From the IMG/VR virus record IMGVR_UViG_2863357390_000001: 64,000 bases of DNA. The stretch is one strand, 5' to 3'. Below the pieces are notes generated by a model that was given only the letters and a program-made list of their open reading frames with translations, did no database searches and was not told the origin of the DNA. How positions within the stretch are numbered: position 1 is the stretch's first letter; each line of letters opens with the position of its first letter. Source of the DNA: a virus (Duplodnaviria > Caudoviricetes). The position numbers and the translations under genes were made by a program. Shown piece after piece: positions 2,192 through 60,618 of this stretch.

Positions 2192-2824
2192 GTGATCATG
2201 ACCAAGGTGGTGCTGGACCACCGCAACCCGCAGACCGTCGAGGATCTCCGAAACGCCTACCAAATGCACGTCCGCGTCCGGGAGATCGCCGAGGGCCTGC
2301 CCGACCCGGACGGCGGCAGGCTGCTGTGGGGCCTGCACGGCACGACCCTGCTCGTGCAGACCGGAGCGGCGGTGTCCCCGCTCGCCCTGCCCGCCGGGTA
2401 CGCCGTCTCGGTCCACTCCGCGAACCTGGCATCCCGCCTCGACCGGATCACCGCCGGTTCGGTCGTGCGGTGGGCGGTCATCGCCAACCCGACCCGGGCA
2501 CGGGCCAAGGCCACCGCCGTCGGCCCCGACGGCGTCCCGGTGCGCAAGTCGAGGGGCCAGCCCACCCCGGTCGCCCTGGGCGAACGCAACGAGTGGATCA
2601 CCCGCAGGCTCGCCCCGGCACTGGAGATCACCGCGCTGACCGGCAGGCCGCTGCCCGCCGCCGCCGGCACCCAGATCCGCACGAGGCACCGCGTGCACCA
2701 CTCCCGGCACCTGTGGCAGGGCACCGCGACCGTGGCCGACCCGGACGTCCTGCGCGGTCTGGTGTCGTCCGGGATCGGCCACGGCAAGGCGTTCGGCTGC
2801 GGCCTGCTGCTGGTGGCGTCGTGA
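2192..2824 (+). CDS. cas6e: Type I-E-like Cas6e (Cse3/CasE) crRNA-processing endonuclease
   Basis: N-terminal AYQMH, IANPT, C-terminal G-loop GIGHGKAFGCGLLLV. Confidence 0.9.
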   Translation: MIMTKVVLDHRNPQTVEDLRNAYQMHVRVREIAEGLPDPDGGRLLWGLHGTTLLVQTGAAVSPLALPAGYAVSVHSANLASRLDRITAGSVVRWAVIANPTRARAKATAVGPDGVPVRKSRGQPTPVALGERNEWITRRLAPALEITALTGRPLPAAAGTQIRTRHRVHHSRHLWQGTATVADPDVLRGLVSSGIGHGKAFGCGLLLVAS

Positions 2825-3579
2825 CCTCGCCGACCCGACTCGTCTGGGGACTGGCCGGACACCCCGAGCCGACCGGGGCCGTCGCGAACCTGTTCGCCGA
2901 CCGGCCCGGGATGTGCGTGATGTGCGGGCTGTCCGCCGACCGCACCGCCGACGCCGCCCGTGCGACCGGCGCGAACTTCACCGACCAGTACCTGTACCGC
3001 CGGCCGGACTCGGACCGGATCTGCCCGGCGTGCGTGTGGTGCTGCTCGGGGAAACCCCCGGCGACGCTGCGCATGTGGACGGTCGTCGCCGCGATCGGCG
3101 CGACCCTGCCCGACAACCACCCCAAGTGCTGGCTGCCCAGCCAACCAGGTTTGTGCCTGACCAACCGGGCCGCGCCCGGTGTCGTCGCCGACATCCTCGC
3201 CGCCCCACCGGAGGGGGCGTGGCTGGTCACCGTCGCGACCTCCGGGCAGAAACACGTCCTGCCCTACGGGAAAGTCAACCACGGCGGTCCCGAGTGGACG
3301 GTCCGAATGGAGAACACCACGATCACCTCCAACGCCCCCACGTGGCGCCGCGTCCTGGGCCACGCCGCCACACTGCGCGCGGCCCGCCACACCGGCGACG
3401 ACCTCGCCGCCGGGCGGCCCACCCTCGCCGCGATCCGCACCGCCGACGACCTCGACACGTGGAACCACCACCACGCCGGACTCGCCGACCACGTCGGCTC
3501 ACCACTACTCGACCTAGCCCTCTGGTGCCTGACCAAGGAGACGATCCATGACCACGCCCACGCCGCCCCCGTCGCCTGA
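2821..3579 (+). CDS. csf1: Type IV Csf1 (Cas8-like) subunit
   Basis: Zn-finger CVMCG...CPACVWC and SGQKHVL motif; first gene of the IV-B order. Confidence 0.8.
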   Translation: MTSPTRLVWGLAGHPEPTGAVANLFADRPGMCVMCGLSADRTADAARATGANFTDQYLYRRPDSDRICPACVWCCSGKPPATLRMWTVVAAIGATLPDNHPKCWLPSQPGLCLTNRAAPGVVADILAAPPEGAWLVTVATSGQKHVLPYGKVNHGGPEWTVRMENTTITSNAPTWRRVLGHAATLRAARHTGDDLAAGRPTLAAIRTADDLDTWNHHHAGLADHVGSPLLDLALWCLTKETIHDHAHAAPVA

Positions 3580-3907
3580 CGAGCTGATCCAGGCCACCGT
3601 CGCCTGGCTCAACGCGCTGCTCGACTCGGCCTCGGCCGACGTGCTCGGCGTCGCCCACTACTGGGACCGCGCCCAGTCCGCGCTGATCACCGCCGCCACC
3701 GCCGACACGGTCGGGGAGGCGGTCACCACCGCCGCCCGCAAACTCCAGATCGAGACCACCCAGGCCCGCACCGACACCGCGCTGCTGGAGGCGTGCGCGG
3801 TGATCGCCGCCGACTACCCCGCCTGGCAGGCGAGGGTGGAACGCGAAGCCGTCTACCTCGTCGCCCTCGCCCGTGTCGCCCGCACCGCCCGGAAGGCCAC
3901 CCGATGA
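3548..3907 (+). CDS. cas11: Type IV-B small subunit (Cas11-like)
   Basis: Small all-helical protein (YWDR...ARKLQI) between csf1 and csf2. Confidence 0.75.
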   Translation: MTTPTPPPSPDELIQATVAWLNALLDSASADVLGVAHYWDRAQSALITAATADTVGEAVTTAARKLQIETTQARTDTALLEACAVIAADYPAWQARVEREAVYLVALARVARTARKATR

Positions 3908-4794
3908 CCACCACGCTGACGATCCCGTTCACCGCCACCCTGGTGGCGCCGCTGCACCACGGCGCCGGCACCGCCGGCAACACCAGCCTCATCCGCACCC
4001 AGCGGATGGTCCGCCCCGACGGCACCGTAGCGCAGGTGCCGTTCGTGTCCGGGAACTCGCTGCGCCACGGCCTGCGCGCCGGCCTGGCCTGGCACGCCGT
4101 GCGCACCCTGGGCGTCGAGGACGGCGGCCTGTCCAAGGCCGTGGTCGACCTGCTGTGGTCCGGCGGCGCGATCACCCGCACCGGCTCCCAGACCGACCTC
4201 GCGCTGCTGCGCCGGGTCGAGCACCTGTACCCGCCGCTCGCCCTGATGGGGTACAGCGCCGCGGCCGACATGACCGCGGGCACCCTCGCCGTCGACCAGC
4301 TGCACCTGGTCTGCGCCGAGAACGCGTGGCGGCTGCCCGGGCGGCTGGCCGGCGACCCACGCGCCGCACGGCCGGCGTCGGCGTTCCGCGGCGAGGAATT
4401 CGGGACTCGCCACGACGTCGCCGGGACCCCGGTCGACCGGTACACCGCGCTGGCCGACGAGCTGGTCCCCACCACCACCCAGATGATCTACGAGCACCAG
4501 GTCGTGCTGCCCGGTGCCGCCCTGTACGGCGGGCTCGTGCTGACCCCGGCGGCCACCGACGCACAGCTCAGGGTCCTGCTCGTCGCCCTCGACGAGATCA
4601 TGCCCGCCGACCGGGACGGCGTCCGCGTCCTGCAACTTGCCGCGAAGCGCGGCGTCGGCTACGGCACCTGCCGGGTCGACCTCGACCTGCCGGACGGCCT
4701 GCCCACCCCCGCCGACGCCCGCGCCTGGTGGGAAGCCCACCTCGTCGAGCACGCCGAGGAGATCACCGCCCTGTGGCAGGAGATCGTCGCGTGA
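3904..4794 (+). CDS. csf2: Type IV Csf2 (Cas7-like backbone RAMP)
   Basis: TLVAPLHHG, VPFVSGNSLRHGLR, LLWSGG, G-rich AKRGVGYG. Confidence 0.9.
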   Translation: MTTTLTIPFTATLVAPLHHGAGTAGNTSLIRTQRMVRPDGTVAQVPFVSGNSLRHGLRAGLAWHAVRTLGVEDGGLSKAVVDLLWSGGAITRTGSQTDLALLRRVEHLYPPLALMGYSAAADMTAGTLAVDQLHLVCAENAWRLPGRLAGDPRAARPASAFRGEEFGTRHDVAGTPVDRYTALADELVPTTTQMIYEHQVVLPGAALYGGLVLTPAATDAQLRVLLVALDEIMPADRDGVRVLQLAAKRGVGYGTCRVDLDLPDGLPTPADARAWWEAHLVEHAEEITALWQEIVA

Positions 4795-5504
4795 GCCCGG
4801 TCGTCCCCGCCGGCACCGTGGTCGACACCACCGACGACCCGCGCTGGCAGCCACTGGTCGTCACCGCGACCCTGACCGAGCCGGTCGTCGGCCTGGACTC
4901 GCAGCCGCTGTGCCTGGACGGGCCGCTGGCGTGGTGCGCCGCGCAGCTCGCCCTGGCCGACGAGGCCGGCCTGCCGCCGCTGCGGCACGACTGGGCACCC
5001 GACCTCGCCCTGCCCCTGGCCACGTGGACCGCCGCGCCCTCCCGGCCCGACACCGACTCGCGGCTGCGCGCCGCCGACGGCGAACGGGTGTGGGGGTGGG
5101 CGTGCTCGGCCGCGTCGTGGACCGCGCTCGGCCACACCACCGTCGAGATCCGCCGCCGTCCCCCGGTCGGAGAGATGGCCCGGTTCACCGCGGACGGCAA
5201 GCACCACTCCGGGTTGGGCCCGTACAAGGCCCGGGACACGCCGATGGCCGCGACCTGGGTCGACACGGTCGTCTGGCACGCCCTGGGCGACCCCGACGCC
5301 GTCGCCGGGCTGCTCGCCCACCTGGGACACCTGGGCCGGGCGACCCGGCACGGCCACGGCCGCATCCAGACGATCACCGTCGAACCCGGCCGGGACCGGG
5401 ACGCGTGGCGGTCCCGGCCGCTGCCCGACCCGACCGGCCCGGCCGGGTCGATCCGCGCCCCCTACCACCACCACTCCCGGAGGATGCCGTGCCGCACCCC
5501 GTGA
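4791..5504 (+). CDS. csf3: Type IV Csf3 (Cas5-like RAMP)
   Basis: LDGPLAW, WACS, G-loop LGRATRHGHGRI. Confidence 0.85.
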   Translation: MSPVVPAGTVVDTTDDPRWQPLVVTATLTEPVVGLDSQPLCLDGPLAWCAAQLALADEAGLPPLRHDWAPDLALPLATWTAAPSRPDTDSRLRAADGERVWGWACSAASWTALGHTTVEIRRRPPVGEMARFTADGKHHSGLGPYKARDTPMAATWVDTVVWHALGDPDAVAGLLAHLGHLGRATRHGHGRIQTITVEPGRDRDAWRSRPLPDPTGPAGSIRAPYHHHSRRMPCRTP

Positions 5505-6394
5505 TCGCCTGGGACGGGCAGCCGGTCGGCGACCGCTACCCGGCGATGGACGTCGTCCCCGGCGTGCTGCCCTGGTCCACCCTGGACCAGGACTCCCGGC
5601 CGTGGCAGGACCGCAAGAAGCACTGGCACGACCTGGGCGTCCGCGACACCACGCCCCGCGACCACGCCGCGGGGATGATGACCACCGGACGGCACGGCGC
5701 CCTCTCGGGCGGGGTGTCGCGGTTCGACCCGGTGCTCGCCGAGGTCCTGTACCGGTGGTACTGCCCGCCGGGCGGGCGGGTGCTCGACCCGTGCGCGGGC
5801 GGACCCGTACGCGGCCTGGTCGCCTCCCACCTGGGCCTGGAGTACGTCGGCGTCGACCTGGACGCCGACCAGGTCGACGCGAACACCGCCGTCGCGGCGG
5901 GTTCGCCGTACCCGTCCCCGGCCTGGTTCGCCGGGGACGCGCTGACCTACGCCTGGCCGGTCTCCGACGGGGACGCGGACATGGTGCTGACCTGCCCGCC
6001 CTACCACGACCGGGAGCGCTACTCCGACGACCCCCGCGACCTGTCCACCATGGACTGGCCCGCGTTCCTCGACGCCCACCGCGCCGTGGTCGGCCGGGCC
6101 GCCGCGGCGCTGCGCGAGGACCGGTTCCTCGCGTGGGTGATCTCCGACGTCCGCGACCGGCACGGCCACCTGCGCGGCCTGCCCCGCCACGCCTGGCAGC
6201 ACCTGGAGGACGCCGGACTGCACGTCGTCAACGAGCACGTGCTGCGTGCCCCGGTCGGCACCGCGCACAAACGCATGCGCCCGCCGTGGCAGGCGTGCCG
6301 CACCGCGACCCGCCGCCACCAGATCGTCCTGGTCGCGGTCAAGGGCGACCGGCGTGCCGCGACCCGCGCCGTGTCCGGGGGTGGCGGGTGCTGA
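5501..6394 (+). CDS. Phage-type N4C/N6A DNA methyltransferase
   Basis: FDPVLAE, SAM-binding VLDPCAGG, catalytic TCPPY followed by ERYSDDPRDLS. Confidence 0.85.
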   Translation: MIAWDGQPVGDRYPAMDVVPGVLPWSTLDQDSRPWQDRKKHWHDLGVRDTTPRDHAAGMMTTGRHGALSGGVSRFDPVLAEVLYRWYCPPGGRVLDPCAGGPVRGLVASHLGLEYVGVDLDADQVDANTAVAAGSPYPSPAWFAGDALTYAWPVSDGDADMVLTCPPYHDRERYSDDPRDLSTMDWPAFLDAHRAVVGRAAAALREDRFLAWVISDVRDRHGHLRGLPRHAWQHLEDAGLHVVNEHVLRAPVGTAHKRMRPPWQACRTATRRHQIVLVAVKGDRRAATRAVSGGGGC

Positions 6395-7161
6395 TCGACT
6401 CGACCCGGATCACCGACCGCGACCGCGACCACTGGGACGCGCTGGAGCGCTACGACCGGATGCTCGCCGCCGACCCGGCCCTGGACCGCAAGGCCGAGAG
6501 CGCCGTCGCCGAGGTCCGGGCGTTCCTGGACGCGGGCGAGGCGTACGTGTCGGTGTCCTGGGGCAAGGACTCCGTCGTCGTCGCCCACCTGGCAGCCCTG
6601 GCCGAGCTGACGGTCCGGGTGGTGTGGGTCCGGTCGGTCCTGTTCGAGACCCCCGAGTGCGACGCGGTGCGCGACGCGTTCCTCGACGCCCACCCGCAGG
6701 TGCGCTACGAGGAGATCGCGGTCGAAATGCGGAACCCGAAACGCGGCGAACCGGGCTACGACACCCGGCACGCCGACCCGCACGCCGACCACCAGGACGT
6801 CCTCCGGGAGACCCTGACCGGCCGGTGGATCTCCGGGCTGCGCGGCGAGGAGTCCCGGATGCGCCGCATGTCCATCGCCCACCGGGGCCTGTCCACGAAG
6901 AACACGTGCCGGCCGATCGGCCGGTGGGACGCCACGCACGTGTTCGCCTACCTGTGGCGCGAGAAACTCCCGGTGCACCCGGTGTACGCGATGACCGCCG
7001 GCGGACACTACGACCGCCGCTGGCTGCGGGTGCACCCGCTGGGGTCGGCACCCCCGGCCCGGTCCGCCGTGCACGGCCGGGACATGGACTCGTGGGAGGA
7101 CGCCTACTACGGGGACGTGCTCGCCGCCGCGAGGCAGGCCCGCGCCCACCTGTGGCGGTGA
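6388..7161 (+). CDS. CysH-like (PAPS reductase / PP-loop) protein, type IV-B associated
   Basis: PP-loop VSWGKDS, GLRGEESRMR, PIGRW...VFAYL. Confidence 0.85.
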   Translation: MLIDSTRITDRDRDHWDALERYDRMLAADPALDRKAESAVAEVRAFLDAGEAYVSVSWGKDSVVVAHLAALAELTVRVVWVRSVLFETPECDAVRDAFLDAHPQVRYEEIAVEMRNPKRGEPGYDTRHADPHADHQDVLRETLTGRWISGLRGEESRMRRMSIAHRGLSTKNTCRPIGRWDATHVFAYLWREKLPVHPVYAMTAGGHYDRRWLRVHPLGSAPPARSAVHGRDMDSWEDAYYGDVLAAARQARAHLWR

Positions 7162-7224: not shown

Positions 7225-7686
7225 TCAGGGGCCGTCGGGGTAGACGACGGCGCGGAGTGCCGCGGCACCGATCCTGTAGATGGCCTCGGCCGCGTCGTCG
7301 CTGTGGTCGATCCACCAGCGGGCATCGGTCCGACCGGTCAGCACCTCGCGCATGGCGTCGATCCAGACGTCGCAGAACGCCGGGGTGAATCCGTTGACGC
7401 CGATCGACGCGACCAGCTCTTCGACGTGGCGTTCGACAGCGGGCGCGGCCCTGCCTCGGATGGCTTCGGCCCAGGCGATCTGTTTGGTGCTGCCGGTGAG
7501 CGGGGGCAGGTCGAGGTCGGCGGTGACCCGGGCGCCGGCGCGGTGTTCGGCGGCGGTGTGGCAGGCGAGGCAGGCGCGGCGTTCCTGGCGGCGGACTTCG
7601 CCGCGGTGTTGGTTGCGGACGTTGGTGCCGGTGATGTTGATGGTGTCCTCGTGTCCGCAGGTGCGGGTGATCGTGTACTGGGCCAT
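7225..7686 (-). CDS. Hypothetical phage protein
   Basis: CGH...CLAC and LTGSTKQIAWAEAIR motif; GGAGG RBS. Confidence 0.75.
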   Translation of the reverse strand: MAQYTITRTCGHEDTINITGTNVRNQHRGEVRRQERRACLACHTAAEHRAGARVTADLDLPPLTGSTKQIAWAEAIRGRAAPAVERHVEELVASIGVNGFTPAFCDVWIDAMREVLTGRTDARWWIDHSDDAAEAIYRIGAAALRAVVYPDGP

Positions 7687-9996: not shown

Positions 9997-10092
9997 TCAC
10001 GCGGTCCTCTCGGCGGTGTCCTCGGCGCGGCCGCGGATGTCCACGTCGGCGCGCGCGTACTCCTGCTGGACGTCCGAGGACGCCAACGGCAT
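9997..10092 (-). CDS. Possible 31-aa peptide
   Basis: TGATG coupling to the upstream gene. Confidence 0.35.
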   Translation of the reverse strand: MPLASSDVQQEYARADVDIRGRAEDTAERTA

Positions 10093-10490
10093 CAGTTCGC
10101 CTCCAGCCAGCCGAGCACGGTGGACCGCTCCACCCCGGCCCGGCGGGCGAACGCGCCGGGCGAGTCCGGGTTGTGCCGCCCACGGACACCGACCCGGACG
10201 GTCATCACGGCGACTTGGCGCAGCGCGGCCAGCGCTTCGATCTCGGCCCGGCGTGCCCTGGTCCGCTCGGCCGCGAGGGTTTCGACGAGGTCGTCCTCGC
10301 CGAGCAGGACGCGGTAGGCGGCGGTGAGCGCGGCGGTGCGTTCGTCCTCGTTGTCGGGGTCGGGCCACGTGGCGGCGATCCGGTCGGCCTCGTCGCGCAG
10401 CCGTGCGAGCCGTTCGTCGTCGAGGCCGTGGTCGTCGCCGAGCCACGCCTCGATCTGGTAGTCCTGCACGGGTCGGGGGGTGTCAGTCAT
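10092..10490 (-). CDS. Actinophage protein with C-terminal HTH
   Basis: GAFARRAGVERSTVLGWL HTH; GAGGAAG RBS. Confidence 0.75.
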   Translation of the reverse strand: MTDTPRPVQDYQIEAWLGDDHGLDDERLARLRDEADRIAATWPDPDNEDERTAALTAAYRVLLGEDDLVETLAAERTRARRAEIEALAALRQVAVMTVRVGVRGRHNPDSPGAFARRAGVERSTVLGWLEAN

Positions 10491-10830
10491 CGTCTTCCTC
10501 GTCGTCGATGGTGTCGCAGGCGAAGCAGTCGCACGGGTAGTCGGCGACGGGGCCGCCGACCGCCCGTGCGAACGCGTCGCCCTCCTCGGTGCGGTGTCCG
10601 GCCGGGGCGTGGAAGACCCCGACCTGGGTGTCCGCGGCCCGATAGAGGGCGCGGGCGAGCCCTTCGCCGCGTCGGTCGGATCGGGTCTCGATGTTGGCGA
10701 TCTCGTGGGTGTCGACGAAGACGTACAGCTCGGCGGCGACACCTCGACCGTCGAGGATTTCCCAGATGAGGTACCGGCCCCCGTCTCCGAGGTAGTCGCC
10801 GGCGCGTCGGGCGATCGTCTCCGTCATCAT
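10483..10830 (-). CDS. GNAT-like acetyltransferase, probably leaderless
   Basis: IANIET...RRGEGLARALY motif A. Confidence 0.6.
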   Translation of the reverse strand: MMTETIARRAGDYLGDGGRYLIWEILDGRGVAAELYVFVDTHEIANIETRSDRRGEGLARALYRAADTQVGVFHAPAGHRTEEGDAFARAVGGPVADYPCDCFACDTIDDEEDDD

Positions 10831-10870
10831 GTTGTACACACTACATGACTCATGCGGTGTGCACAACATG
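10828..10870. promoter_or_regulatory. Palindromic promoter cassette
   Basis: 13/14-bp inverted repeat; - strand TTGTGC-17-TAGTGT, 7 nt before ATG 10830. Confidence 0.7.
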
Positions 10871-10971
10871 ATGGTTGCCGCTGGACGCAGCGTCCCGACC
10901 ACATCATTCGGTCTCCGGACGGCACTGGCCCACCATGGCTTCGAGGCCGGCGCGCGTCGGTGTGCAGAGAT

Positions 10972-11283
10972 CTACTCGCCGTCGCCGTTCCCGTGGTCGC
11001 GGTACCACCGCAGCCACGACCAGGGCCTCACCCACACACCCCACGGCATCATCGACTCCTCGGTCCCGGTCAACCCCGCGACCCCGACCTCGATCAGCCG
11101 CATCCCGCCCAGGACGACCACCACGACCGCGGGCGCGACGGCCGGGGCCAGCCACCACGGCCACCGGACGTCCCGGGCCACGTCGGACCACCTGTCCGCC
11201 TCGACCGCGACGACCACGCACCACCCCAGGCCCAAGGCCGCGCTGACGGTTTCCCTGAGCAGCTCCCGGTTCGTCTTCTTCAC
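10972..11283 (-). CDS. Small membrane protein
   Basis: GTGA coupling to cas8e; two hydrophobic segments. Confidence 0.6.
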   Translation of the reverse strand: MKKTNRELLRETVSAALGLGWCVVVAVEADRWSDVARDVRWPWWLAPAVAPAVVVVVLGGMRLIEVGVAGLTGTEESMMPWGVWVRPWSWLRWYRDHGNGDGE

Positions 11284-13151
11284 GACGACTCCTCTCCTTC
11301 CCGTTCCGTGTCGTCCGGTGCGGCGCCCGGAGCACGTCGCCCCGGCGTGGTCAGCGCCGCCTCGGGATCCCACCCGTTGATCAGCCGCGACCGCAGCGCC
11401 GACACCGAGACCACGCAGCGCTCGTCACGCGCCCACTGCGCCTGGGTCTTCTCCTCCCCGAACGCCACCAGCATCGGCGACGGCCTCCCCCCGCCCGCAC
11501 CGCGTCCGGACCCGGGCTTCCGCCCGCCGGACCGCCGGGCCCTCGCGCCCGCCGCCGCGGCGGCGAACGCCCGCGCCTGTACCGGGGTGACCTTTCTCGG
11601 ATAGGGCTTGGTGGGCAGGTCGGTGAAGTACGCCACGTACCGCTCCAACGCGACCCCGGCCTTCGCACGCATCAACATGCCCGACGAGCCGCCGAACGGC
11701 AGCCGGTCCAAGGCCTGCGCGCACAGCCCGACCAGTCGCCGGCCGTAGTCCAGGCACACCCCGGCCAGCTCCTCGTGGGACGGGTCGGTGTCCAGCGCGG
11801 CCAGCCGGCGGGTCGTGTCGGACCACAGCCGCTCCAGCGCGTAGGCGTCGGGCGTGAGCCTGTCGCCGAGGGTGACGTGCGGCAGCGCCTCGGCCGCGGC
11901 GACGGCCAGGCCGCGCAGCGTGGCCGCCGTCTGGTGGTCGAGGAACGCCACCACGCGCGCGGTGGGCTCGGCGGCGTGCACCCCGACCGGTCCCAGGTCG
12001 ACCCGGCCGTTGTGGTCGCCGACGGCCACGGAGCCGTGCGTGTTGTAGACGGCCTGGGACACCCACACCCGCAGCGGCAGGTCGGCGGGCAGCAGGCCGC
12101 GCCGGGCCGCGCCGACGGCGTGCACCAGTGCGCCGCTGTGCCAGCGGCGGGGGTCGGCGGCGGGCGGGACGTGCAACGGCCGGGTGAGCAGCCACCACCG
12201 GGGCTGGTGGCCGTACGGGTCGAACGCGTCGGGGTCCGCCGTGCCCTGGCCGTCCCGGGAGTCGCGGCACAGCAGGGTCGGGTCCAGGCGGTGGTAGTGG
12301 TTCCAGTACCCGGCGACCCGGTCCCCGTCGTGCCACGCCCACCGGGCCACCCGGCCGTCCCGGTCGGGGAACAGCCTCAGCCGGCGCGCGGGCATCGTGG
12401 CCAGCTCCAGCCGCCCGGCCGGGACGCGGTCGACGCGGATGCCCGCCGGCGGGCCCTCGTCGCGTTCCCACTCCGGGGCGTCGCCCGGCGCGCGGGGCGC
12501 GGGCGGCAGGTTGAGCAGCAGCGTGTCCTTGAGGGTGGCGCCGAGCACGACCAGCCGGACGGTGGCGCCCAGCGGGCCGATCCGGGACCCGTAGACCTTG
12601 TTCCCCTTCCCGGCGGGGTCGCCGGGCGCGGCGGGTTTGATCCCGCCGGTGTCGTAGGCCATGCGGACGAGCAGGTTCCGGGCCGCCTCGCCCGGCTCCC
12701 ACGGCGGGTGGTCCGCGCCCCGGTACAGGCCGGGGTGGAACCACGCCGCGCCCTGCCCGCCCAGCCAAGCGGGGTGCAGCTCGACCGCGCCCCGGTTCGG
12801 CTCGGCCAGGTGGGCGCACTGGGCGAAGGGCCGGTCGGGGTCGTACAGGTCGAACCGGTTCGCCCACCGGTCGAGGTAGTCGGCGATCCGGCCGTGCGGG
12901 TCCAGGGTCGGCGCCCGCCAGGCGGCGTCCCACCCGTCGTCGTCGACGGGTCCGGCGGCGGCCTCGTAGACGGCCAGCAGCAGCCGCAGCAGGACCAGGC
13001 CCTCGCCGGACAGGCCGAGGCGGGCGAGGTTGTGCCGGTGCGCGGACTGCAGCGCCTCGCGCAGTCCCACCTCCCGTTCGCCCTCGCCCCCGGTGGTGTA
13101 CACCGGGATCCAGGGCCGGGAGAGCAGGTCGTAGGACGGGGCGCCGGTCAC
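11280..13151 (-). CDS. cas8e: Orphan type I-E Cas8e (Cse1/CasA) homolog with C-terminal extension
   Basis: YDLLSRPWIPV, EVGLREAL, LLRLLLAV, RFDLYDPDRPFAQ, EAARNLL...AYDTGGIK, LGATLKDTLLLNL. Confidence 0.85.
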   Translation of the reverse strand: MTGAPSYDLLSRPWIPVYTTGGEGEREVGLREALQSAHRHNLARLGLSGEGLVLLRLLLAVYEAAAGPVDDDGWDAAWRAPTLDPHGRIADYLDRWANRFDLYDPDRPFAQCAHLAEPNRGAVELHPAWLGGQGAAWFHPGLYRGADHPPWEPGEAARNLLVRMAYDTGGIKPAAPGDPAGKGNKVYGSRIGPLGATVRLVVLGATLKDTLLLNLPPAPRAPGDAPEWERDEGPPAGIRVDRVPAGRLELATMPARRLRLFPDRDGRVARWAWHDGDRVAGYWNHYHRLDPTLLCRDSRDGQGTADPDAFDPYGHQPRWWLLTRPLHVPPAADPRRWHSGALVHAVGAARRGLLPADLPLRVWVSQAVYNTHGSVAVGDHNGRVDLGPVGVHAAEPTARVVAFLDHQTAATLRGLAVAAAEALPHVTLGDRLTPDAYALERLWSDTTRRLAALDTDPSHEELAGVCLDYGRRLVGLCAQALDRLPFGGSSGMLMRAKAGVALERYVAYFTDLPTKPYPRKVTPVQARAFAAAAAGARARRSGGRKPGSGRGAGGGRPSPMLVAFGEEKTQAQWARDERCVVSVSALRSRLINGWDPEAALTTPGRRAPGAAPDDTEREGEESS

Positions 13152-15942: not shown

Positions 15943-17115
15943 TCAGACGACGGCGCGCAGGCCGTGGCGCAGGTCGGCGTTGAGGGCTTCGCGGATCTCG
16001 CGGGCGCGGGCGGCTCCGACGGACAGGGCTTCACGGACGGCCTGCTCGGTGTAGCTGCCCCGCGCGCCGGGCTGGAGCCGACCCGACTCGATCAGTCGAC
16101 GGGCGGCGTCGAGCTGTCCGTCGAGAGTCGGGTCGGTCGGGTCGGCATCGGAGTCGGGTCGGGTCGGGTCGGGTTCGGTCGACTGCTTCTGAGTCGGGTC
16201 GGCCAGTCGGGTTGCCGGAGTCGGGTCGGCTTCCGGCTCGCCGGTCGGGTCGGGTGAGTCGGCTACCGGGTCGGGTCGGTCGGTCGGGCAGTCGGCTTGT
16301 CGGGTCGGGTCCGGTTCCCGCGCGGTCGGCAGGGTCGGCTTGCCCGACTCGACCGGTCGGGCCGGGTCGGGTCGACTACCCGACTCACCCGACTCTCGCA
16401 GGTCAGGCCCAGAGTCGGGTTCGAGTCGGGTACCCGACTCGGCCACGCGAGTCGGGTACCCGACCCGGCCCGTCGGGTCGGGTGGGACCGGCGAGTCGGC
16501 AGGTGAGTCGGCTACCGGGTCGGGTCGGGTCGGCTTCGCGGAGTCGGCCGGCTCGACGTGGGTCGGGTAGTCGGACAGGCGACCGGTCGGGTAGCCGACC
16601 GGCCCGACCGCGAGTCGGGTACCCGACCCGACCCGACCCGACCGGGAGTCGAGCCAGGCCCGCAGCACCGCGCCGAACGCATGCACCAGCACGCCGACCA
16701 TGATCGGCACGGCGACCGACAGCAGCATCACCACCAGATCCCACCGGCCCGGCAGGTGCCAGCCGGCCATCGAGTCGGGCATCACCGCCCGGGTCGTGCC
16801 GCCGGGCACCGCGATCGAGTGCCCGGCGAGGTTGACCACGACCGACAGGCCGGTGGCGCCGACCAGCAGGCCCAGTCCCCAGGCGCGGACCTGCCGGTCG
16901 CGGGCGACGACGTGCATCACCGCCCCCGCGGAGGCGGCGAGGTCGAGGACGACCGGCCCGAGCGGCGCGGTGCGGGGCCCCCAGCCGCCGAGCATCATCA
17001 CCGGCAACTGCTGCTCGAACGACAGGACGAACGCGCCGCCGGCCAGGGGCAGCAGCAGGGCGCCGAGGACGGCGACGAGCCATCCGGGCGTGGGGGTGGT
17101 GTGGGGTGCGGTCAC
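15943..17115 (-). CDS. Spd/DUF2637-like transfer-spreading membrane protein with C-terminal HTH
   Basis: Four TM helices (AFVLSF...LD...LSVVVN), low-complexity linker, terminal HTH; start could be ATG 17391. Confidence 0.7.
   Translation of the reverse strand: MTAPHTTPTPGWLVAVLGALLLPLAGGAFVLSFEQQLPVMMLGGWGPRTAPLGPVVLDLAASAGAVMHVVARDRQVRAWGLGLLVGATGLSVVVNLAGHSIAVPGGTTRAVMPDSMAGWHLPGRWDLVVMLLSVAVPIMVGVLVHAFGAVLRAWLDSRSGRVGSGTRLAVGPVGYPTGRLSDYPTHVEPADSAKPTRPDPVADSPADSPVPPDPTGRVGYPTRVAESGTRLEPDSGPDLRESGESGSRPDPARPVESGKPTLPTAREPDPTRQADCPTDRPDPVADSPDPTGEPEADPTPATRLADPTQKQSTEPDPTRPDSDADPTDPTLDGQLDAARRLIESGRLQPGARGSYTEQAVREALSVGAARAREIREALNADLRHGLRAVV
16081..16642. repeat. Dense GTCGG/CCGAC pentamer array with palindromes
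   Basis: Tandem (GTCGG)n; GTCGGGTACCCGAC palindrome three times. Confidence 0.85.
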
Positions 17116-17139: not shown

Positions 17140-17303
17140 GTGAATGGGGGTGTGAAGGGGGTGAATGCGAGGGTGAGTCGGTTCGGTGTCACCGGGTCTC
17201 ACTCCGCTCTCACTCCGCATCACTGCGGCTTTCACCCCCGTGTCACCCCGTATCACTGCGGTCTCACCTCCGGTCTCACCCCGCTTGTCACCCCCGCTCT
17301 CAC
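17140..17303. repeat. Helically phased TCAC/GTGA repeat array (clt-like candidate)
   Basis: 11 TCAC motifs spaced 10-12 nt plus 4 inverted GTGA motifs, directly downstream of traB. Confidence 0.7.
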
Positions 17304-17387
17304 CCCCTCCGACCTGTAACTGCGTGTCCGTCGGCCGGGGTGACGCGTCGACGGACGGACCGGCCGCCTCCGGGACTTCGGCGCGGA

Positions 17388-19400
17388 TCATGCCGGGACC
17401 AACTCGCGCACGAACCTGAACCCGGTGTCGGTGCGCTCCAGTTGCCCGGTGTCCACACGGCCGTTCAGCGACTTGTAGACCCACGCCGGGGACCGGACCG
17501 CCTTTCGGGCCACGTCGACCAAATCCCCGGCCCGGATCTCCTCCACGCCCTGGGCCTGGAGTTCGAGCAGCCGCTGCTCGAACAGCGCGGCGGCCTCGGC
17601 GGGCGTGGCTTTGGGTCCGGCGGGTCGCTCCCAGTCGCCGTCCGTGCCGCCGATGGGCAGCGGGTCGTCGATGCCCGGCTGCACGGAAGGGTCCGGGTCG
17701 TCGGCACCGGGCCGCCACGGCTCCTCGAAGTCGTCGCCGAGCAGATCCCGCACCGGCGCCTCGTCGTCTTCGTCGTCCACGACCGGCACCGGCACCGGGG
17801 TGGGCGGCACAACGGGTGCTGCGGGTGCGCTCGGGGCCGCGCCGACCATGCTCTCGACCGGAACCCGGGTGGTGTACAGCTCGCCGAACGCCGCCGTGGT
17901 CATCGCGTCCAAATCGTCGCCGTGCAGCCGTGCCCAGCGGGCCAGCATCCGGAGCTGGTCGTCGGAGATCCCCAGGGTCCGGCCAGGGGTGGTCCACAGC
18001 GCCCGGTCGACGCCGGGGGCGACCAGGTAGCAGCACGCGGGCCGTTCGTTCTTCCACCGTGACGGGTCGGCACCGGCCTCCAGGACCTCGTCGGGCATGG
18101 CGAACGCGGCGTCTTCCTGCTCGGCGACGCCGAAGCAGAGCACCGCGCCGAACTGCGCGCGCGCGGCCACGTCGAGCGACACGTACGAGGGCCTCTGCAT
18201 GGACAAGGTGAACTCGACGCCCACCGACCGGATGCGCTCCATGGACTGGACGAACGCCTTGTCGCCCAGGAACAGGCCGGATCCCTCCTCGATGTGCACG
18301 CGCAGCCGGGGAATGCCGCACCCGGGCTCCCAGTTCTTCAGGCCGCGGCGGCCGAGGTAGTCGGCCCGCGCCGGTACGACCTTGTCCCGCAGAGCCCGCA
18401 TCAGCGCGTGGGCCTCGGCCTCGGTGCGGATGACCCACCGGATCCCCTCGGCCAGCGGCCCCAGGGACTGCGCGCCCTTCACCGTGTCGACGTAGATCGT
18501 GTAGGTGTCCCGGCGGGTGAACTCCTCGGCGAAGATCACGTAGGCGCCGAAGGTCTTGCCCGCACCGGTCATTCCCATGATCAGGAGCGCGGTCTCGCCC
18601 CATCCGGGTCGGTGCAACGGCAGCATCATCGGCCGCCCGTCCTCGTACACCCCGATCCGGTACGGCTGCGCCGGCGTGCCGCCCAGCGCGGACGGTTCGG
18701 TGTACGGGGTGGACTCGCGCAGCATGTCCCGGCGGACCAGGGTCAGCTCGGCCTGCGACGAGTCGTCCGGGGACGGGGTGATGCGCGCACCGCCCGGCGG
18801 GAGCCGGAGCACCGACTCGAGCTTGGACAGGGAGCGCTGGGCGTCGTCGACGGTCTCGCCGCCCTCCAGCGACAGCGGCCCGGCCAGCCGGTCCTCCGAC
18901 TTCTCCTTCGGCGTGTAGGCCGAGCCCTCGAGCGCACCGCCGACCTTGGTGGACACCTCGTCCCACAGCGACCGGCGGGCGCCCTCGGTCGCGTCCTGGG
19001 TGCGGCGCAGCACCCGGCGTACGATCCACGCCCCGGTCACCGACGCCCCCGCCCACCCCCACACGCCCAGCAGCGGCTGCGACACCGGCCCGGCCATCAC
19101 CGCGGCGATCTGGTGGGCGCCGACCAGGATCGGCGTGCCCAGCGCGAACACCCGGCCCAGCATGTTGCGCCGTCGGTCCAGGTGGTGGACCAGGACGACC
19201 ATGCCCGCGGTCGTGGCCCCGATGCCCAGGGTCATCCACGGCAGCGACTCCGGCGTGGCCAGTCCCCACAGGGTGCACGACAACGCGAAGTCGCCGGCCA
19301 GTCCGGCGACGGGCGCGGCGGCCACGGCCAGGCGGGACGCGGCGTGCTTGGCCACCCGGCCCCCGGCGTCCTTCGACGCTCTGATCAGCGGGTTAACCAC
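17388..19400 (-). CDS. traB: FtsK/SpoIIIE-like TraB plasmid-transfer DNA translocase
   Basis: N-terminal TM region, Walker A GMTGAGKT, Walker B VHIEEG, SMQRPS, C-terminal wHTH. Confidence 0.85.
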   Translation of the reverse strand: MVNPLIRASKDAGGRVAKHAASRLAVAAAPVAGLAGDFALSCTLWGLATPESLPWMTLGIGATTAGMVVLVHHLDRRRNMLGRVFALGTPILVGAHQIAAVMAGPVSQPLLGVWGWAGASVTGAWIVRRVLRRTQDATEGARRSLWDEVSTKVGGALEGSAYTPKEKSEDRLAGPLSLEGGETVDDAQRSLSKLESVLRLPPGGARITPSPDDSSQAELTLVRRDMLRESTPYTEPSALGGTPAQPYRIGVYEDGRPMMLPLHRPGWGETALLIMGMTGAGKTFGAYVIFAEEFTRRDTYTIYVDTVKGAQSLGPLAEGIRWVIRTEAEAHALMRALRDKVVPARADYLGRRGLKNWEPGCGIPRLRVHIEEGSGLFLGDKAFVQSMERIRSVGVEFTLSMQRPSYVSLDVAARAQFGAVLCFGVAEQEDAAFAMPDEVLEAGADPSRWKNERPACCYLVAPGVDRALWTTPGRTLGISDDQLRMLARWARLHGDDLDAMTTAAFGELYTTRVPVESMVGAAPSAPAAPVVPPTPVPVPVVDDEDDEAPVRDLLGDDFEEPWRPGADDPDPSVQPGIDDPLPIGGTDGDWERPAGPKATPAEAAALFEQRLLELQAQGVEEIRAGDLVDVARKAVRSPAWVYKSLNGRVDTGQLERTDTGFRFVRELVPA

Positions 19401-23403: not shown

Positions 23404-23727
23404 TCAGTGGTCGTGGTCGGGTTCGGGTTGGGGTTCGGGTAGGGCCAGGAGGCCGGCCACGGCGTCGGCGAGCGTTCCGTCGTGGTGCCAGGTGGCGTGT
23501 TCGCCGTCGCGGCGGTGGGCGGTGGCGTCGTCCGGGCCTCGGGTGGCCATGACGTCCACTACCGCCGTGCCGGGCCACACGCGCATGCCGGAGAAGCCGC
23601 ATTTGCCGTCCTCGTAGGCGATACGCAGCGGGAACCACTTCCACGGGCCTTGTGTGGCGAGCAGGTCGAGGTCGGGTACGTCGGCTAGCCATTCGGCGAG
23701 CGCTTCGGGGGTCAGGTCGTCGGCCAC
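23404..23727 (-). CDS. Hypothetical protein
   Basis: GGAG RBS before GTG. Confidence 0.65.
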   Translation of the reverse strand: MADDLTPEALAEWLADVPDLDLLATQGPWKWFPLRIAYEDGKCGFSGMRVWPGTAVVDVMATRGPDDATAHRRDGEHATWHHDGTLADAVAGLLALPEPQPEPDHDH

Positions 23728-28000: not shown

Positions 28001-28186
28001 ATGCCCCGCTTCCTTGCCACCGTGCTCAGGACCTGTTTCGTGGTCGTGGTCGTGTTCAACGTCGTCGGCGCGGTCGGCAACCTGGTCACCGGCCAGCCGA
28101 CCACCGGCTACATCGCGAACCTGGCGTTCGCACTGAGTGTGTACAACCTCGCCCGCCCCGGCGACCCGCACTGGGCGCGAGCATGA
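28001..28186 (+). CDS. Small membrane protein
   Basis: Two hydrophobic segments. Confidence 0.5.
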   Translation: MPRFLATVLRTCFVVVVVFNVVGAVGNLVTGQPTTGYIANLAFALSVYNLARPGDPHWARA

Positions 28187-29681: not shown

Positions 29682-30304
29682 TGACCGACTTCTGCTCGAC
29701 CCCGACCTGTGCGTCCCGTGACACCCCGCCCTGGGCGGCCGAAGGGGCGACCGTGTGCGCCCGGTGCGTCACCCGGCTCCGGGAGGACTGCACCGCCATC
29801 CCCACGCTGTGGAGACCCTGGACGGCCACCGCCGCGCTCTACCCCACCCGTGCCGCATCCGGCCGGCGCGCTCCGGGCGTGGCCCCGGCCGCACCGGCCA
29901 ACTTGGTGGCCCTGGTCATGACCGACGTGCGCACGTCGTGGGACGAGCCCGGTGACCTGCTCAACCCTCAGCGGGCGTTGGCCGAGGTGTCCGCGCGCAT
30001 CCTCCGCGACGGCGCAGGCCAAGCGCGGGCGTTGGGGTCGCTGTCGGTGGCCGAGTCCTGTGCGGTCATCGGCGTCGGCCCGCTGCACTGGTGGGCGCTG
30101 GCGCAGGAGTGGGCGGGGGCGATGTGCTGGACGGTCCGCCTGGTCCGCCACCAGCTCGGCGGCCTGGCGCACGAGGTCCGGCCGCGCCCGGTCGGGACGT
30201 GCGAAGGGTGTCAGGGTCCGTTGTGGGTGTCGGGCATGTCGGTGGTGTGCCGGGCGTGCCGCACGGACAGGTCGGGGTTCGAGCTGCTCGGGCTGTCGGC
30301 ATGA
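29678..30304 (+). CDS. Cys-rich hypothetical phage protein
   Basis: N-terminal and C-terminal CxxC pairs. Confidence 0.7.
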   Translation: MMTDFCSTPTCASRDTPPWAAEGATVCARCVTRLREDCTAIPTLWRPWTATAALYPTRAASGRRAPGVAPAAPANLVALVMTDVRTSWDEPGDLLNPQRALAEVSARILRDGAGQARALGSLSVAESCAVIGVGPLHWWALAQEWAGAMCWTVRLVRHQLGGLAHEVRPRPVGTCEGCQGPLWVSGMSVVCRACRTDRSGFELLGLSA

Positions 30305-39771: not shown

Positions 39772-41451
39772 GTGGCTCTCCCGAGATGCGGGTACGTCCT
39801 GGACGACCTGGAGTGCCGGGAGCGCGGGGACCACTTCTGCGAGCCGCGGGCGTTGCACGCGAAGGCGTTTTTCGAGGAGATCCTGGTCCACACCAAGGGC
39901 ACGTGGGCGCGGAAAAGGTTCGTCCTGTCGGCGTGGCAGGACACCGAGATCATCGCCCCGATCTTCGGTCCGGTGCGGTGGTCGGAGGAGTTCGGCTGCT
40001 ACGTGCGCGTGATCCGGATCGTGTGGATCGAGCTGGCGCGCAAGCAGGGCAAGTCCGAGATCCTGGCCGGGATCGCGCTGTACATGCTGTGCGCGGACGG
40101 CGAGGAGCAGGCCGAGGTCTACGGGGCGGCGTGCGACAAGGACCAGGCGCGGAAGGTGTTCGACGTCGCGGCGCGGATGGTGCAGTTGTCACCGGTGCTG
40201 TCGAAGCGGCTGGTGGTCAAGCAGCACGAGAAGCGGATCGTGGACGAGCGGACGGGTTCGTACTACGAGGTGATCGCGGCGGACGCGGCGGGCAACCTGG
40301 GGCACAACCCGCACTGCATCGTGTTCGACGAGGTGTTGACGCAGAAGAACGGTGCGCTGTGGGACTCGCTGCGCACGGCGATGGGCACGCGGACGCAGGC
40401 GTTGATGGTCGCGGCGACCACGCCGGGGGACGATCCGTCGTCGTGGTGCGGCGGGATGCACGACGAGATGCAGCGCGTCGCGGACCAGCCGGAGCGGGCT
40501 CCGCACATCCACGTGTTCCTGCGCAACACGCCGCCGGACGCGGACCCGTGGGACGAGACCCTGTGGGGTTACGCGAATCCGGCGCTCGGCGAGTTCCTGT
40601 CGATCCAGGCGTTGCGGGACGAGGCGGTCGAGGCGCGCAACGACCCGTCGAAGGAGAACTCGTTCCGCCAGTACCGGCTCGCGCAGTGGGTGCGGCAGTC
40701 GCATCGGTGGATGCCGATGCACCTGTACGAGGACTGCGTCGGCGAGCCGTGGCTGGCCCCGGACTACCGGCGGCGGGAGTTGTCGGGGCGGGTGGCGTGG
40801 GCCGGGTTCGACCTCGCCGCGAAGTTCGACCTCGTCTCGTGGTGCCTGCTGGTGCCCGATGGCCACGAGGTGCACGCGTTGTGGCGGTTCTGGCTCCCGG
40901 AGTCGGGACTGGCCTTTTTGGACAAGCACAACGAGGGGAAGTTCTCCCGGTGGGCGCGTGAGGGCTGGTTGACGGTGACCGAAGGGGACGTCGTCGACTA
41001 CGACCGCGTCTACACCGACATCGAAACGGACGCCCGGGACTTCGACATTCGCGCGTCGGACGCGGACCAGTGGTCGATGGCGCCGGTGATCCAGGAGATC
41101 GAGAAGCGCACCGGGGTGTGGGAGATCGATGCCTACAACAACACCTACCAGCGCATGTCCCCGGGGATGACGGAGCTGATGGCGCTGGTGAAAGCGCGCC
41201 GATTCCGGCACCACGGGAACCCGGTCGCCCGGTTCTGCTTCGACGCGGTCGAGGTGCGCAAGGCCCCGTACGACCCGGAGCTGATCCGGCCGGACAAGCC
41301 CGAGCGTGACAAGTCCGGGAAGCGGATCGACGCGGTGCCGTCGGCGGCGATGGCGGTGTCGGCGTGGAAACGGGACCCGCTGCCCGAGACGAAACCGACC
41401 GAGCCTGGTCGGCGGATCGTGGTGTCGTCGCGGAGAGGGAGGTCCGCGTGA
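39772..41451 (+). CDS. Terminase large subunit
   Basis: ARKQGKS Walker A, FDEV Walker B, AGFDLA, KRIDAV. Confidence 0.95.
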   Translation: MALPRCGYVLDDLECRERGDHFCEPRALHAKAFFEEILVHTKGTWARKRFVLSAWQDTEIIAPIFGPVRWSEEFGCYVRVIRIVWIELARKQGKSEILAGIALYMLCADGEEQAEVYGAACDKDQARKVFDVAARMVQLSPVLSKRLVVKQHEKRIVDERTGSYYEVIAADAAGNLGHNPHCIVFDEVLTQKNGALWDSLRTAMGTRTQALMVAATTPGDDPSSWCGGMHDEMQRVADQPERAPHIHVFLRNTPPDADPWDETLWGYANPALGEFLSIQALRDEAVEARNDPSKENSFRQYRLAQWVRQSHRWMPMHLYEDCVGEPWLAPDYRRRELSGRVAWAGFDLAAKFDLVSWCLLVPDGHEVHALWRFWLPESGLAFLDKHNEGKFSRWAREGWLTVTEGDVVDYDRVYTDIETDARDFDIRASDADQWSMAPVIQEIEKRTGVWEIDAYNNTYQRMSPGMTELMALVKARRFRHHGNPVARFCFDAVEVRKAPYDPELIRPDKPERDKSGKRIDAVPSAAMAVSAWKRDPLPETKPTEPGRRIVVSSRRGRSA

Positions 41452-44533: not shown

Positions 44534-45238
44534 ATGACCGACATCTCGGTCCGCTGGAACGACTACCAGGTCGAGAAGCGGGACTGGTTGGCGGGCGAGC
44601 ACGGAACCGGCCCGGGCGACAACCCGTCCGTCGTGCTCGACGTCTCCCTGTTCACGCAGAACATCCACTACCCCAACGGTTACATCCCGTCGGGCACCCC
44701 GCTGGCGAAGGTGACGGCGACCGGATTGTACGGGCCGTACAGCGTCACCGACGAGGTGCAGACCATCACCGAGGGCGGCTCCGGTCTCACCTCGTTCACG
44801 TTGACCCTGTCGGGTCAGACCACGGGGTCCATCGCCGCCGCGGCGACCGCGGACACGGTGAAGGCCGCGATCGAGGCCCTGTCGAACGTCGGCGCGGGCA
44901 ACGTCGCGGTCACCGGCAACGCGGGCGGGCCGTACACGGTGACGTTCACCGGCGCGTTGGCGGACACCAACGTCGCGCAGATGACCGCAACCCCGACCGG
45001 TGGCACCGGCACCGTCACGATCGCCACGACCACCGGCGGCGGCACCGAGGGCACCGGCGGCCTGGAGACCTGTGCGGGTCTGCTGTTCGGCTTCGCCACG
45101 GTCGTACGCGGGACCACCACGCTGGCCAAGGTCGGCGGGGCGCTGTTCGTGCACGGGTTCGTGCGCCGCTCACGGCTGCCGTTCACGTTGGACACCAACG
45201 GGCAGAACGACCTCAAGCTGATCCACTTCACCGACTGA
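44534..45238 (+). CDS. Head decoration protein with inserted Ig-like domain
   Basis: NGYIPSGTPLAK...GLYGPY...GLLF, interrupted by an EVQTIT...YTVTF module. Confidence 0.75.
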   Translation: MTDISVRWNDYQVEKRDWLAGEHGTGPGDNPSVVLDVSLFTQNIHYPNGYIPSGTPLAKVTATGLYGPYSVTDEVQTITEGGSGLTSFTLTLSGQTTGSIAAAATADTVKAAIEALSNVGAGNVAVTGNAGGPYTVTFTGALADTNVAQMTATPTGGTGTVTIATTTGGGTEGTGGLETCAGLLFGFATVVRGTTTLAKVGGALFVHGFVRRSRLPFTLDTNGQNDLKLIHFTD

Positions 45239-60403: not shown

Positions 60404-60469
60404 CTCCCGGTGCGCAGCTGGCGGTTACTTCATGGCGTTGAACACCGCAGGCGACTTTGATCTCGGGAG
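60404..60469 (+). ncRNA. Short Y RNA (YrlB-like)
   Basis: 5' CTCCCGGTGCGCAG pairs with 3' GACTTTGATCTCGGGAG; same termini as the neighbouring RNA; upstream of Ro60. Confidence 0.75.
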
Positions 60470-60486: not shown

Positions 60487-60618
60487 GCCCGGTGCGCAGG
60501 CGAGGGTTACTTCCACTACTAATGGGCGGTCGCAGGTTCGAGTCCTGCCAGCGGCTTCGGCCGTTGTAGCTCAGTTGGCCAGAGCAGCTACGTCACCTTC
60601 GCCGACTTGATCTCGGGC
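60487..60618 (+). ncRNA. yrlA: YrlA-like Y RNA with permuted tRNA-like domain
   Basis: T arm GCAGGTTCGAGTCCTGC (60532-48), cUUCGg stem, D arm TAGCTCAGTTGGCCAGAGC (60567-85), Ro-binding stem. Confidence 0.85.

Follow-up and report, generated by a model that had tools for sequence, protein, structure and literature searches.

CRISPR-Cas systems of type IV-B are defined in reviews as having neither an array nor a processing enzyme (PMC8175902), and a survey of type IV loci described Cas6 in this subtype as "rare exceptions: only 12 instances" (Pinilla-Redondo et al., PMC7038947). The one type IV-B complex studied biochemically, that of Mycobacterium sp. JS623, has no linked Cas6 (PMC7937560). 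The function of these systems has been open for more than 10 years; a role as a CRISPR RNA (crRNA) sponge has been proposed (PMC8175902, PMC7937560), and a clade with a dedicated Cas6e offers a natural system for hypotheses of crRNA scavenging or sponging. Here we describe such a case on a 64,000-nucleotide stretch of viral DNA (IMG/VR record IMGVR_UViG_2863357390_000001; "the window" hereafter), nearly all of which is a prophage located at positions 1,106,492 to 1,170,491 of a 7.35-Mb, single-contig host genome with 71% guanine-plus-cytosine (GC) content. In this prophage a predicted Cas6e gene (cas6e) stands at the head of a type IV-B operon. A preliminary description of the window, made from the sequence alone, had noted the Cas6e and proposed that it processes or captures crRNA precursors of the host's type I-E system, or that it acts on a noncoding RNA of the phage.

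Results

A predicted Cas6e endoribonuclease

The cas6e gene (positions 2192 to 2824, plus strand) is predicted to encode a Cas6e-family endoribonuclease of 210 amino acids. The protein matches PF08798 from end to end (E = 5.3e-27; 95.9 bits against a cut-off of 25), which places it in the family, and scores 38.3 bits with the Cas6e equivalog TIGR01907, short of the cut-off of 45.2. Its sequence matches in the PDB are Cas6e chains (5U07, 2Y8W, and 1WJ9), and its Tyr23 and His26 align with Tyr23 and His26 of Thermus thermophilus Cse3 (1WJ9), which we take to be the catalytic pair of that enzyme. Across the phage Cas6e clade, whose members are only 34 to 45% identical to the window protein and occur in at least 10 actinobacterial genera, His26 does not vary, nor do G194, G196, G202, and G204, the glycines of the G-loop. 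An AlphaFold model built from an alignment of 13 clade members has a predicted local distance difference test score of 91, and its best Foldseek matches are all Cas6e structures (4TVX_M, 2Y9H, 2Y8W, and 4DZD; template modeling [TM] scores of 0.64 to 0.72, E of ∼1e-13); the closest folds are Escherichia coli CasE within Cascade and T. thermophilus Cse3 bound to RNA (TM of ∼0.7), whereas a type IV Cas6 (6NJY) reaches a TM of only 0.42. The modeled fold is double ferredoxin-like (RAMP), as in solved Cas6e structures, and the enzyme is apparently active as judged from its residues and predicted structure. The Cas6e of the preliminary description, with its intact-looking G-loop, is borne out by the family match, the invariant residues, and the fold.

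Could cas6e instead be a functionless passenger, or the decaying remnant of a captured type I-E operon? The score under the NCBIfam equivalog cut-off and the absence of an array would be in keeping with decay, but we consider it very improbable, given the strong coding signal of the open reading frame (GC at third codon positions of 0.95 versus 0.54 at second positions in a GC3 frame analysis, within a tight run of plus-strand genes), the invariance of the catalytic histidine and G-loop over at least 10 actinobacterial genera, and the confident Cas6e fold.

A type IV-B operon led by cas6e

The genes of the module run in the order cas6e-csf1-cas11-csf2-csf3-MTase-cysH, where MTase denotes a methyltransferase-like gene, and all lie on the plus strand. 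The GTG start of csf1, which encodes a Cas8-like large subunit (2821 to 3579; TIGR03114, E = 1.1e-6, scoring below the cut-off), overlaps the cas6e stop by 4 nucleotides (nt), an arrangement of translational coupling, and csf1 homologs that are 37 to 61% identical follow cas6e in all related loci of sufficient length. Next comes a putative cas11 small-subunit gene (3548 to 3907; 119 amino acids), assigned by its size, its place between csf1 and csf2, and the presence of homologs in all related loci; family-profile and PDB searches with its product returned no match. The Cas7 backbone gene csf2 (3904 to 4794; TIGR03115, E = 9.6e-8, below the cut-off) encodes a protein matching Csf2 of the solved type IV-B complex 7JHY (E = 1.1e-10), and csf3, a Cas5 gene (4791 to 5504), matches the whole TIGR03116 profile (E = 2.5e-18; 66.5 bits against a cut-off of 140). 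The DNA methyltransferase-like gene between csf3 and cysH (5489 to 6394; PF01555 N6_N4_Mtase, E = 2.9e-6, 27.8 bits with a cut-off of 26.7) has homologs at the same module position in about half of the related loci, and the cysH-like gene of the PAPS (3′-phosphoadenosine-5′-phosphosulfate) reductase family (6388 to 7161; PF01507, E = 9.2e-12), a signature accessory of type IV-B, is kept wherever a related locus extends far enough to include it.

The predicted type IV-B core (csf1, cas11, csf2, and csf3) is therefore present, with cas11 recognized by position and size only, and like other type IV-B systems the module has no array, adaptation genes, helicase, or nuclease; profile searches of the module genes found no DinG or RecD helicase domain. 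The Csf2 backbone that the preliminary description placed alongside Cas6e belongs to this operon, which is coupled to cas6e and carried on a prophage. Type IV-B is also defined by the lack of a Cas6-type processing enzyme, and here and in the relatives cas6e leads the operon; because it is the first operon gene, we class the module as a variant of type IV-B and not as a typical member. The module has neither the DinG helicase nor the array of its own that characterize type IV-A, and its cas6e adjoins csf genes instead of lying in a type I-E operon beside a cognate array.

A conserved sub-variant of prophages and viral contigs

A full HMMER search with Cas6e recovered 91 cluster representatives at E of ≤1e-10, while a word-index homolog search had recovered a single relative only. 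Six of the nearer HMMER relatives (E of 1e-39 to 1e-12) were looked up on Logan and NCBI contigs, and csf1 was the next gene in all six; one match at E = 2e-10 was a canonical type I-E Cas6e. The full module was present in 13 of 14 IMG/VR viral contigs retrieved by Cas6e alignment. Csf2 alignment led to 15 species genomes in GTDB that carry the module, belonging to Corynebacterium (5), Nocardia, Nocardiopsis, Brevibacterium, Cutibacterium, Frankia, Scrofimicrobium, Phytoactinopolyspora, and Microbispora, together with a Pseudonocardiaceae and a Mycobacteriales metagenome-assembled genome, and cas6e lies ahead of csf1 in all 14 of these loci that have enough upstream DNA. A Csf2 scan of 400 genomes of the same family added one further carrier only, and tblastn against GenBank phages found no homolog. 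None of ∼30 related actinobacterial prophage or phage loci contains a CRISPR array. Because the cas6e-csf synteny recurs and arrays are absent across the related loci, the module as predicted from these sequences is a distinct, conserved type IV-B sub-variant found mainly on prophages and viral contigs.

Two of the related loci (L004, positions 10594 to 10983; L013, positions 1883 to 2272) carry a small GerE/LuxR-type helix-turn-helix (HTH) gene between cas6e and csf1, which resembles the HTH regulators that accompany anti-CRISPR operons. Gaps of similar size separate the two genes in L020, L022, L024, L034, L038, and L044.

Searches for an array or solitary repeat

Tandem Repeats Finder and a repeat finder detected no CRISPR array in the window, in agreement with the preliminary description, and none was found in the prophage as a whole, which is ∼80 kb long. 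That description had named one finding that would speak against borrowed guides, an array of the same element lying a little beyond the window, and this was likewise not seen: a k-mer array finder returned none across genome positions 985 kb to 1,490 kb, and sequences with up to 8 mismatches to a host repeat formed none up to 60 kb beyond either end of the window. The closest type I-E array (genome 949,142 to 949,780) ends ∼157 kb upstream, outside the prophage. The Rfam CRISPR-DR models matched nothing in the window, but they equally missed the host's own control array; in their place we used a covariance model built from the type I-E repeats of twelve arrays, with which true host repeats score 25 to 40 bits. 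The highest score in the window was 18.6 bits, under the range of real repeats, and neither there nor in 32 related loci did the model find a solitary type I-E-like repeat.

Two covariance-model matches in the window, at 44826 to 44850 and 46974 to 46997, scored 17 to 19 bits, where real repeats reach 25 or more; both lie inside coding genes, and we treated them as chance. The second is an isolated type I-E-like hairpin on the minus strand (CCCCGC-N6-GCGGGG, then GTGAGC; 17.5 bits), antisense inside a structural gene; it is probably due to chance, being no better than expected at such GC content. Two-copy direct repeats ∼80 nt apart, which L014 and L025 have downstream of the module and the window has at 60406 and 60488, were considered as mini-arrays and rejected: they are iteron- or operator-like and lie behind an HTH gene, and the window pair flanks a Y RNA-like element. 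In L014 (15120 to 15240) and L025 (14360 to 14470), four iteron-like repeats follow the HTH gene just downstream of the module, and behind them comes the motif AAAGACAGTAAGTCAACCAGTAA, common to these two distant prophages and a candidate origin or operator.

These searches bear on a different substrate for the enzyme. Cas6e could process a non-CRISPR hairpin RNA, of phage or host, into a fixed guide or scaffold for machinery made up of the Csf proteins, the MTase, and the CysH-like protein; the output, for instance site-directed DNA modification or the regulation of genes, would then have nothing to do with the host's CRISPR, and the co-occurrence with type I-E described below would only reflect host range. 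The JS623 complex did form on non-CRISPR RNA (PMC7937560); the strict conservation of the CysH-like gene and the frequency of the MTase point to an output that modifies nucleic acids; the phage Cas6e clade stands far from the Cas6e proteins of hosts; and the minus-strand hairpin at 46974 resembles a type I-E repeat. Yet that hairpin is at chance level and antisense to its gene, the search of the 32 loci turned up neither a conserved hairpin nor a solitary repeat close to the module, and all 16 carriers show evidence of type I-E. We think this account unlikely, and the same holds for the phage noncoding RNA that the preliminary description offered as its second option.

Co-occurrence with host type I-E systems

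The type I-E repeat on which any borrowing of host crRNAs would depend is present in the host of this prophage as a 28-nt repeat in about ten arrays (61-nt period). The host has a complete type I-E operon, with open frames from cas3 through cas2, and a second type I-E effector locus in which cas3, cse1, cas7e, and cas6e were checked; three arrays with a 37-nt repeat (type I-C) adjoin Cas8c (genome 841,770 to 843,452). Type I-E arrays and/or Cas7e occur in all 16 carrier genomes, comprising this host and the 15 others. Cas7e was found in 12 of the other 15, the remaining three have type I-E arrays, and arrays were seen directly in 13 of the 16. By comparison, a class-level sample of 401 genomes included 59 with Cas7e (the background is ∼13 to 15% across class samples), and type I-E repeats occurred in 20 of 150 genomes, a tally that includes one unpublished genome (G816) as a count only. 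Co-occurrence in every carrier is the opposite of the published negative correlation between type IV-B and type I-E (PMC7038947). The hairpin of the type I-E repeat (CCCCGC-N4-GCGGGG) is invariant across all carrier hosts, and one Cas6e specificity could therefore serve across hosts.

In five of the 16 carriers (G403, G404, G415, G411, and G407) cas7e is missing (three genomes), partial (one), or interrupted by a stop codon (one) while arrays are present, and in G404 the phage-type Cas6e is the sole Cas6e detected. Such defects could mean that autoimmunity was resolved, or that orphan arrays are used by the module.

The latter possibility would also suit a defensive use of the same guides, in which the module borrows host type I-E crRNAs for exclusion and Csf complexes silence incoming related phages or plasmids. 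The dependence on type I-E arrays would be equally well explained, and in the three carriers that have arrays and no detectable Cas7e, one of them with the phage-type Cas6e as its only Cas6e, the module could be the sole user of the arrays. Type IV-A works by repression and not by cleavage (PMC11519345, PMC12669027), and a preprint on type IV-A3 is reported to describe spacer acquisition in trans (10.1101/2023.06.23.546257). On this reading, tolerance of self-targeting would come from another prophage feature or from a silent host system. Against it, many host spacers match the resident prophage, and the complex would thus bind the very genome that encodes it; no helicase (DinG or RecD) is found in the module; and survival alongside a complete Cascade-Cas3 is left unexplained. 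On balance we find exclusion a rather unlikely purpose for the module.

Self-targeting of the prophage

Twenty-one of the 180 host spacers match the prophage, at sites spread from window position −14,662 to 60,606, and 16 of them come from type I-E arrays (of ∼130 type I-E spacers). Seven of these 16 match at 33 of 33 positions, all with a 5′ AA flank, as expected for an AAN protospacer-adjacent motif (PAM). Perfect type I-E matches in the window, each with this flank, lie at 10087 to 10119 (plus strand; spacer from the array at genome 949 kb), 23596 to 23628 (plus; array at 3.16 Mb), 30188 to 30220 (minus; array at 97 kb), 40561 to 40593 (minus; array at 2.556 Mb, beside the complete type I-E cas operon), and 49136 to 49168 (plus; also the array at 2.556 Mb). 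A match of 31/33 with a 5′ AA lies just downstream of the module (7390 to 7422, plus), and one of 30/33 (60574 to 60606) overlaps the region of the Y RNA-like element; other type I-E protospacers start at 20913, 22758, 45608, and 46460, and five more lie in the same prophage upstream of the window. The rest of the host genome has only six other self-matches (6,846,656 to 6,850,190; 1,576,384; 1,708,122; 2,381,686; and 5,606,408), presumably in other mobile elements.

The pattern recurs in other hosts. Of 12 genomes tested, 7 have type I-E spacers with matches in the prophage that carries the module; the counts for the other species compare only the cas-adjacent array with 20 kb around the module. 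The strongest case is C. ulceribovis, in which 21 of 99 spacers are self-targeting, mostly with perfect matches; 17 have the AA flank, 18 fall on one strand, and several lie inside the module itself. Self-targeting spacers were also found in C. striatum (10/75), C. megadyptis (4/33), C. phocae (3/83), B. otitidis (2/14), and P. limicola (1/43). As a control for specificity, cross-genome spacer matches occurred solely between copies of the same element. Here and in these six other species the element persists despite PAM-flanked matching spacers and intact cas genes, which is the pattern used to recognize elements of the anti-CRISPR class. Tolerated self-targeting of prophages has been attributed to priming combined with an evasion mechanism (PMC7708048); the new element is its recurrence on prophages bearing the cas6e-type IV-B module.

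Tolerance of this kind would also be expected if Cas6e alone acted as a decoy, binding or cutting host pre-crRNA hairpins and blocking their hand-over to Cascade but not loading the Csf complex, with its place in the operon serving co-expression only; its RNA-binding and catalytic features are intact, as such a role would need. The strict, coupled synteny with csf1 to csf3 in ∼30 loci argues for a joint complex, however, and a crRNA processed by a foreign Cas6e might remain usable by the host, and we judge a lone decoy improbable.

Discussion

Diversion of host guides as the preferred reading

The identity of the genes, the conserved residues, the synteny and coupling, the absence of an array, the co-occurrence with type I-E, and the self-targeting, all of them observed, form a strong but circumstantial case that the module acts on host type I-E crRNAs. 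With about even confidence, we propose that the prophage Cas6e acts in trans on host type I-E pre-crRNA, feeds a nuclease-free Csf complex, and blunts type I-E immunity. Having no array of its own, Cas6e would work on the host's type I-E transcripts, recognizing the CCCCGC-N4-GCGGGG hairpin of the repeat, cutting at its base, and remaining on the 3′ hairpin. The co-translated Csf proteins would assemble on the crRNA, Csf3 at the 5′ handle and Csf2 and Cas11 along the guide, together with Csf1. Because Csf complexes have no nuclease, guides would be diverted from Cascade-Cas3, and the complexes may additionally occupy matching protospacers. The prophage could thereby persist in a host whose type I-E arrays target it, and the module would be in effect an anti-CRISPR made from Cas parts. 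The central proposal of the preliminary description, that the enzyme acts on host type I-E crRNA, thus gains circumstantial support from the type I-E evidence in all 16 carriers, the invariant hairpin, and the PAM-flanked self-targeting; its further steps, namely cleavage of that substrate, loading onto Csf2, and the outcome for immunity, are ones that we infer.

A variant of this proposal would bring in the two accessory enzymes. A Csf complex that the phage Cas6e has loaded with host anti-phage crRNAs might bind the matching prophage protospacers and bring in the coupled MTase and the CysH-like enzyme, by which they would be modified or shielded. The resident prophage would thereby become immune to Cascade-Cas3 while unmodified incoming relatives would still be destroyed, a restriction-modification-like CRISPR logic that benefits the prophage and would account for the accumulated self-targeting spacers. 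We hold such shielding to be a long shot.

Several observations weigh against the diversion of type I-E guides. Self-targeting shows that the prophage is tolerated, and the gene responsible could be another one; self-targeting of prophages on a large scale is generally known and is usually ascribed to small anti-CRISPR (Acr) proteins or to inactive systems (PMC7708048). Five type I-C spacers also match the prophage, the flank being TTC in four cases and CTC in the fifth (28028 to 28061, plus strand, 34/34, spacer of the 37-nt-repeat arrays, 5′ CTC; 56810 to 56843, 32/34, TTC; and three further sites upstream of the window), so that the prophage tolerates a second CRISPR type, which Cas6e cannot explain. 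No self-targeting was seen in 5 of the 12 genomes tested, within the sampled 4 to 20 kb. The JS623 type IV-B complex bound heterogeneous RNA without enrichment of co-expressed type I-E crRNAs (PMC7937560), and diversion does not account for the parts played by the MTase and the CysH-like protein. The prophage Cas6e is only 22 to 28% identical to the host's two canonical Cas6e proteins and hence represents a divergent lineage; at this level of identity we also rejected its recent capture from the host type I-E operons. Finally, naive Fisher tests of the association between module and type I-E give p of ∼1e-6 to 1e-12, values that are inflated since they ignore phylogeny and host range, and the Cas7e background is already 42% in Corynebacterium (51 of 121 genomes); even at a 40% background, co-occurrence in 16 of 16 genomes is unlikely by chance.

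Other features of the prophage

The window contains genes for a large terminase, portal, major capsid, and tape-measure protein, as well as a tyrosine integrase (62801 to 64000, minus strand), and the prophage DNA upstream of the window encodes an ERF recombinase, an HTH protein, and a C5 methylase. The left border falls between host serA, which ends at genome position 1,090,316, and the first protospacer at 1,091,829, and the length of ∼80 kb given above follows from this placement upstream of the window.

A second type I-E-derived gene lies ∼4 kb from the module, which counts in favor of the proposed diversion of guides. Its 623-amino-acid product (11280 to 13151, minus strand) has the N-terminal domain of Cas8e (Cse1) at residues 8 to 305 (PF09481, E = 1.6e-47; TIGR02547, 94.4 bits with a cut-off of 70). 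This domain is 35 to 36% identical to the N-terminal domains of both host Cse1 proteins, and the C-terminal half of ∼320 amino acids is unrelated to them; at such identity, recent capture from the host type I-E operons was rejected. No cse2, cas7e, or cas5e adjoins the gene, and no homolog of it was found near the module in the ∼30 related loci examined. This solo protein is possibly a Cascade decoy.

Further elements were observed along the window. A gene for a Ro60-like protein with TROVE and VWA domains (60660 to 62237, plus strand) is preceded by a Y RNA-like (YrlA) element (60528 to 60585) that has tRNA-like arms and scores 35 bits, under the Rfam threshold; the direct repeats at 60406 and 60488, each 26 nt, lie upstream of it. 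Dense GTCGG pentamer repeats and repeats phased at ∼11 nt occupy 16127 to 16650 and 17184 to 17306, between minus-strand genes. A gene for a 670-amino-acid protein (17388 to 19400) had no Pfam match at E of 0.001. ARAGORN called a tRNA-SeC at 63788 to 63883 (plus strand) inside the integrase frame; it is likely spurious or else belongs to the attachment region.

Comparison with known systems

In the literature searched, no paper links type IV-B and Cas6e to type I-E arrays or to self-targeting. Should the proposed diversion of guides be true, the module would be the first anti-CRISPR or guide-hijacking device built from a complete Cas effector complex, it would overturn the published view that type IV-B avoids type I-E hosts, and it would mark prophages able to neutralize type I-E in Corynebacterium, Nocardia, Cutibacterium, and other actinobacteria.

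The closest described relative is type IV-B of the Mycobacterium sp. JS623 megaplasmid (7JHY; PMC7937560, PMC8175902), which has the same core gene order and a cysH-like accessory; both are borne by mobile elements in Actinobacteria, and neither has an array, adaptation genes, a nuclease, or a helicase. The module differs in having Cas6e as its first, coupled gene, universal in this Csf2 sub-clade, and in the frequent insertion of an MTase. The carriers found here are mainly prophages and viral contigs and not plasmids, and all of them have type I-E, whereas type IV-B overall was reported to be negatively correlated with it (PMC7038947). Type IV-A3 of enterobacterial plasmids resembles the module in combining a type IV effector with a Cas6 derived from type I-E (PMC7038947) and in its reported functional dependence on a co-resident type I-E system (PMC7038947; 10.1101/2023.06.23.546257). 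It differs in having its own array and a DinG helicase, both absent here, and in lacking Cas11 and CysH; what it borrows is adaptation machinery and not guides. Canonical Cas6e (CasE/Cse3) of E. coli, T. thermophilus, and T. fusca shares with the prophage protein the family, the fold, the Tyr/His pair, and the G-loop, while the prophage protein is shorter, divergent, and below the TIGR01907 cut-off, and its gene is not beside cas7e, cas5e, cas1, cas2, or an array.

Some anti-CRISPRs mimic CRISPR parts, among them phage RNA anti-CRISPRs, which are solitary repeats that trap Cas proteins, and Acr proteins that mimic Cas proteins. With these the module, as proposed, would share the principle of a mobile element turning CRISPR parts on the CRISPR of its host, and it shows self-targeting, the usual mark for recognizing prophages that bear Acr genes (PMC7708048). 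The direction of the trap would be reversed: RNA decoys take host proteins, whereas here a protein complex would take host RNA.

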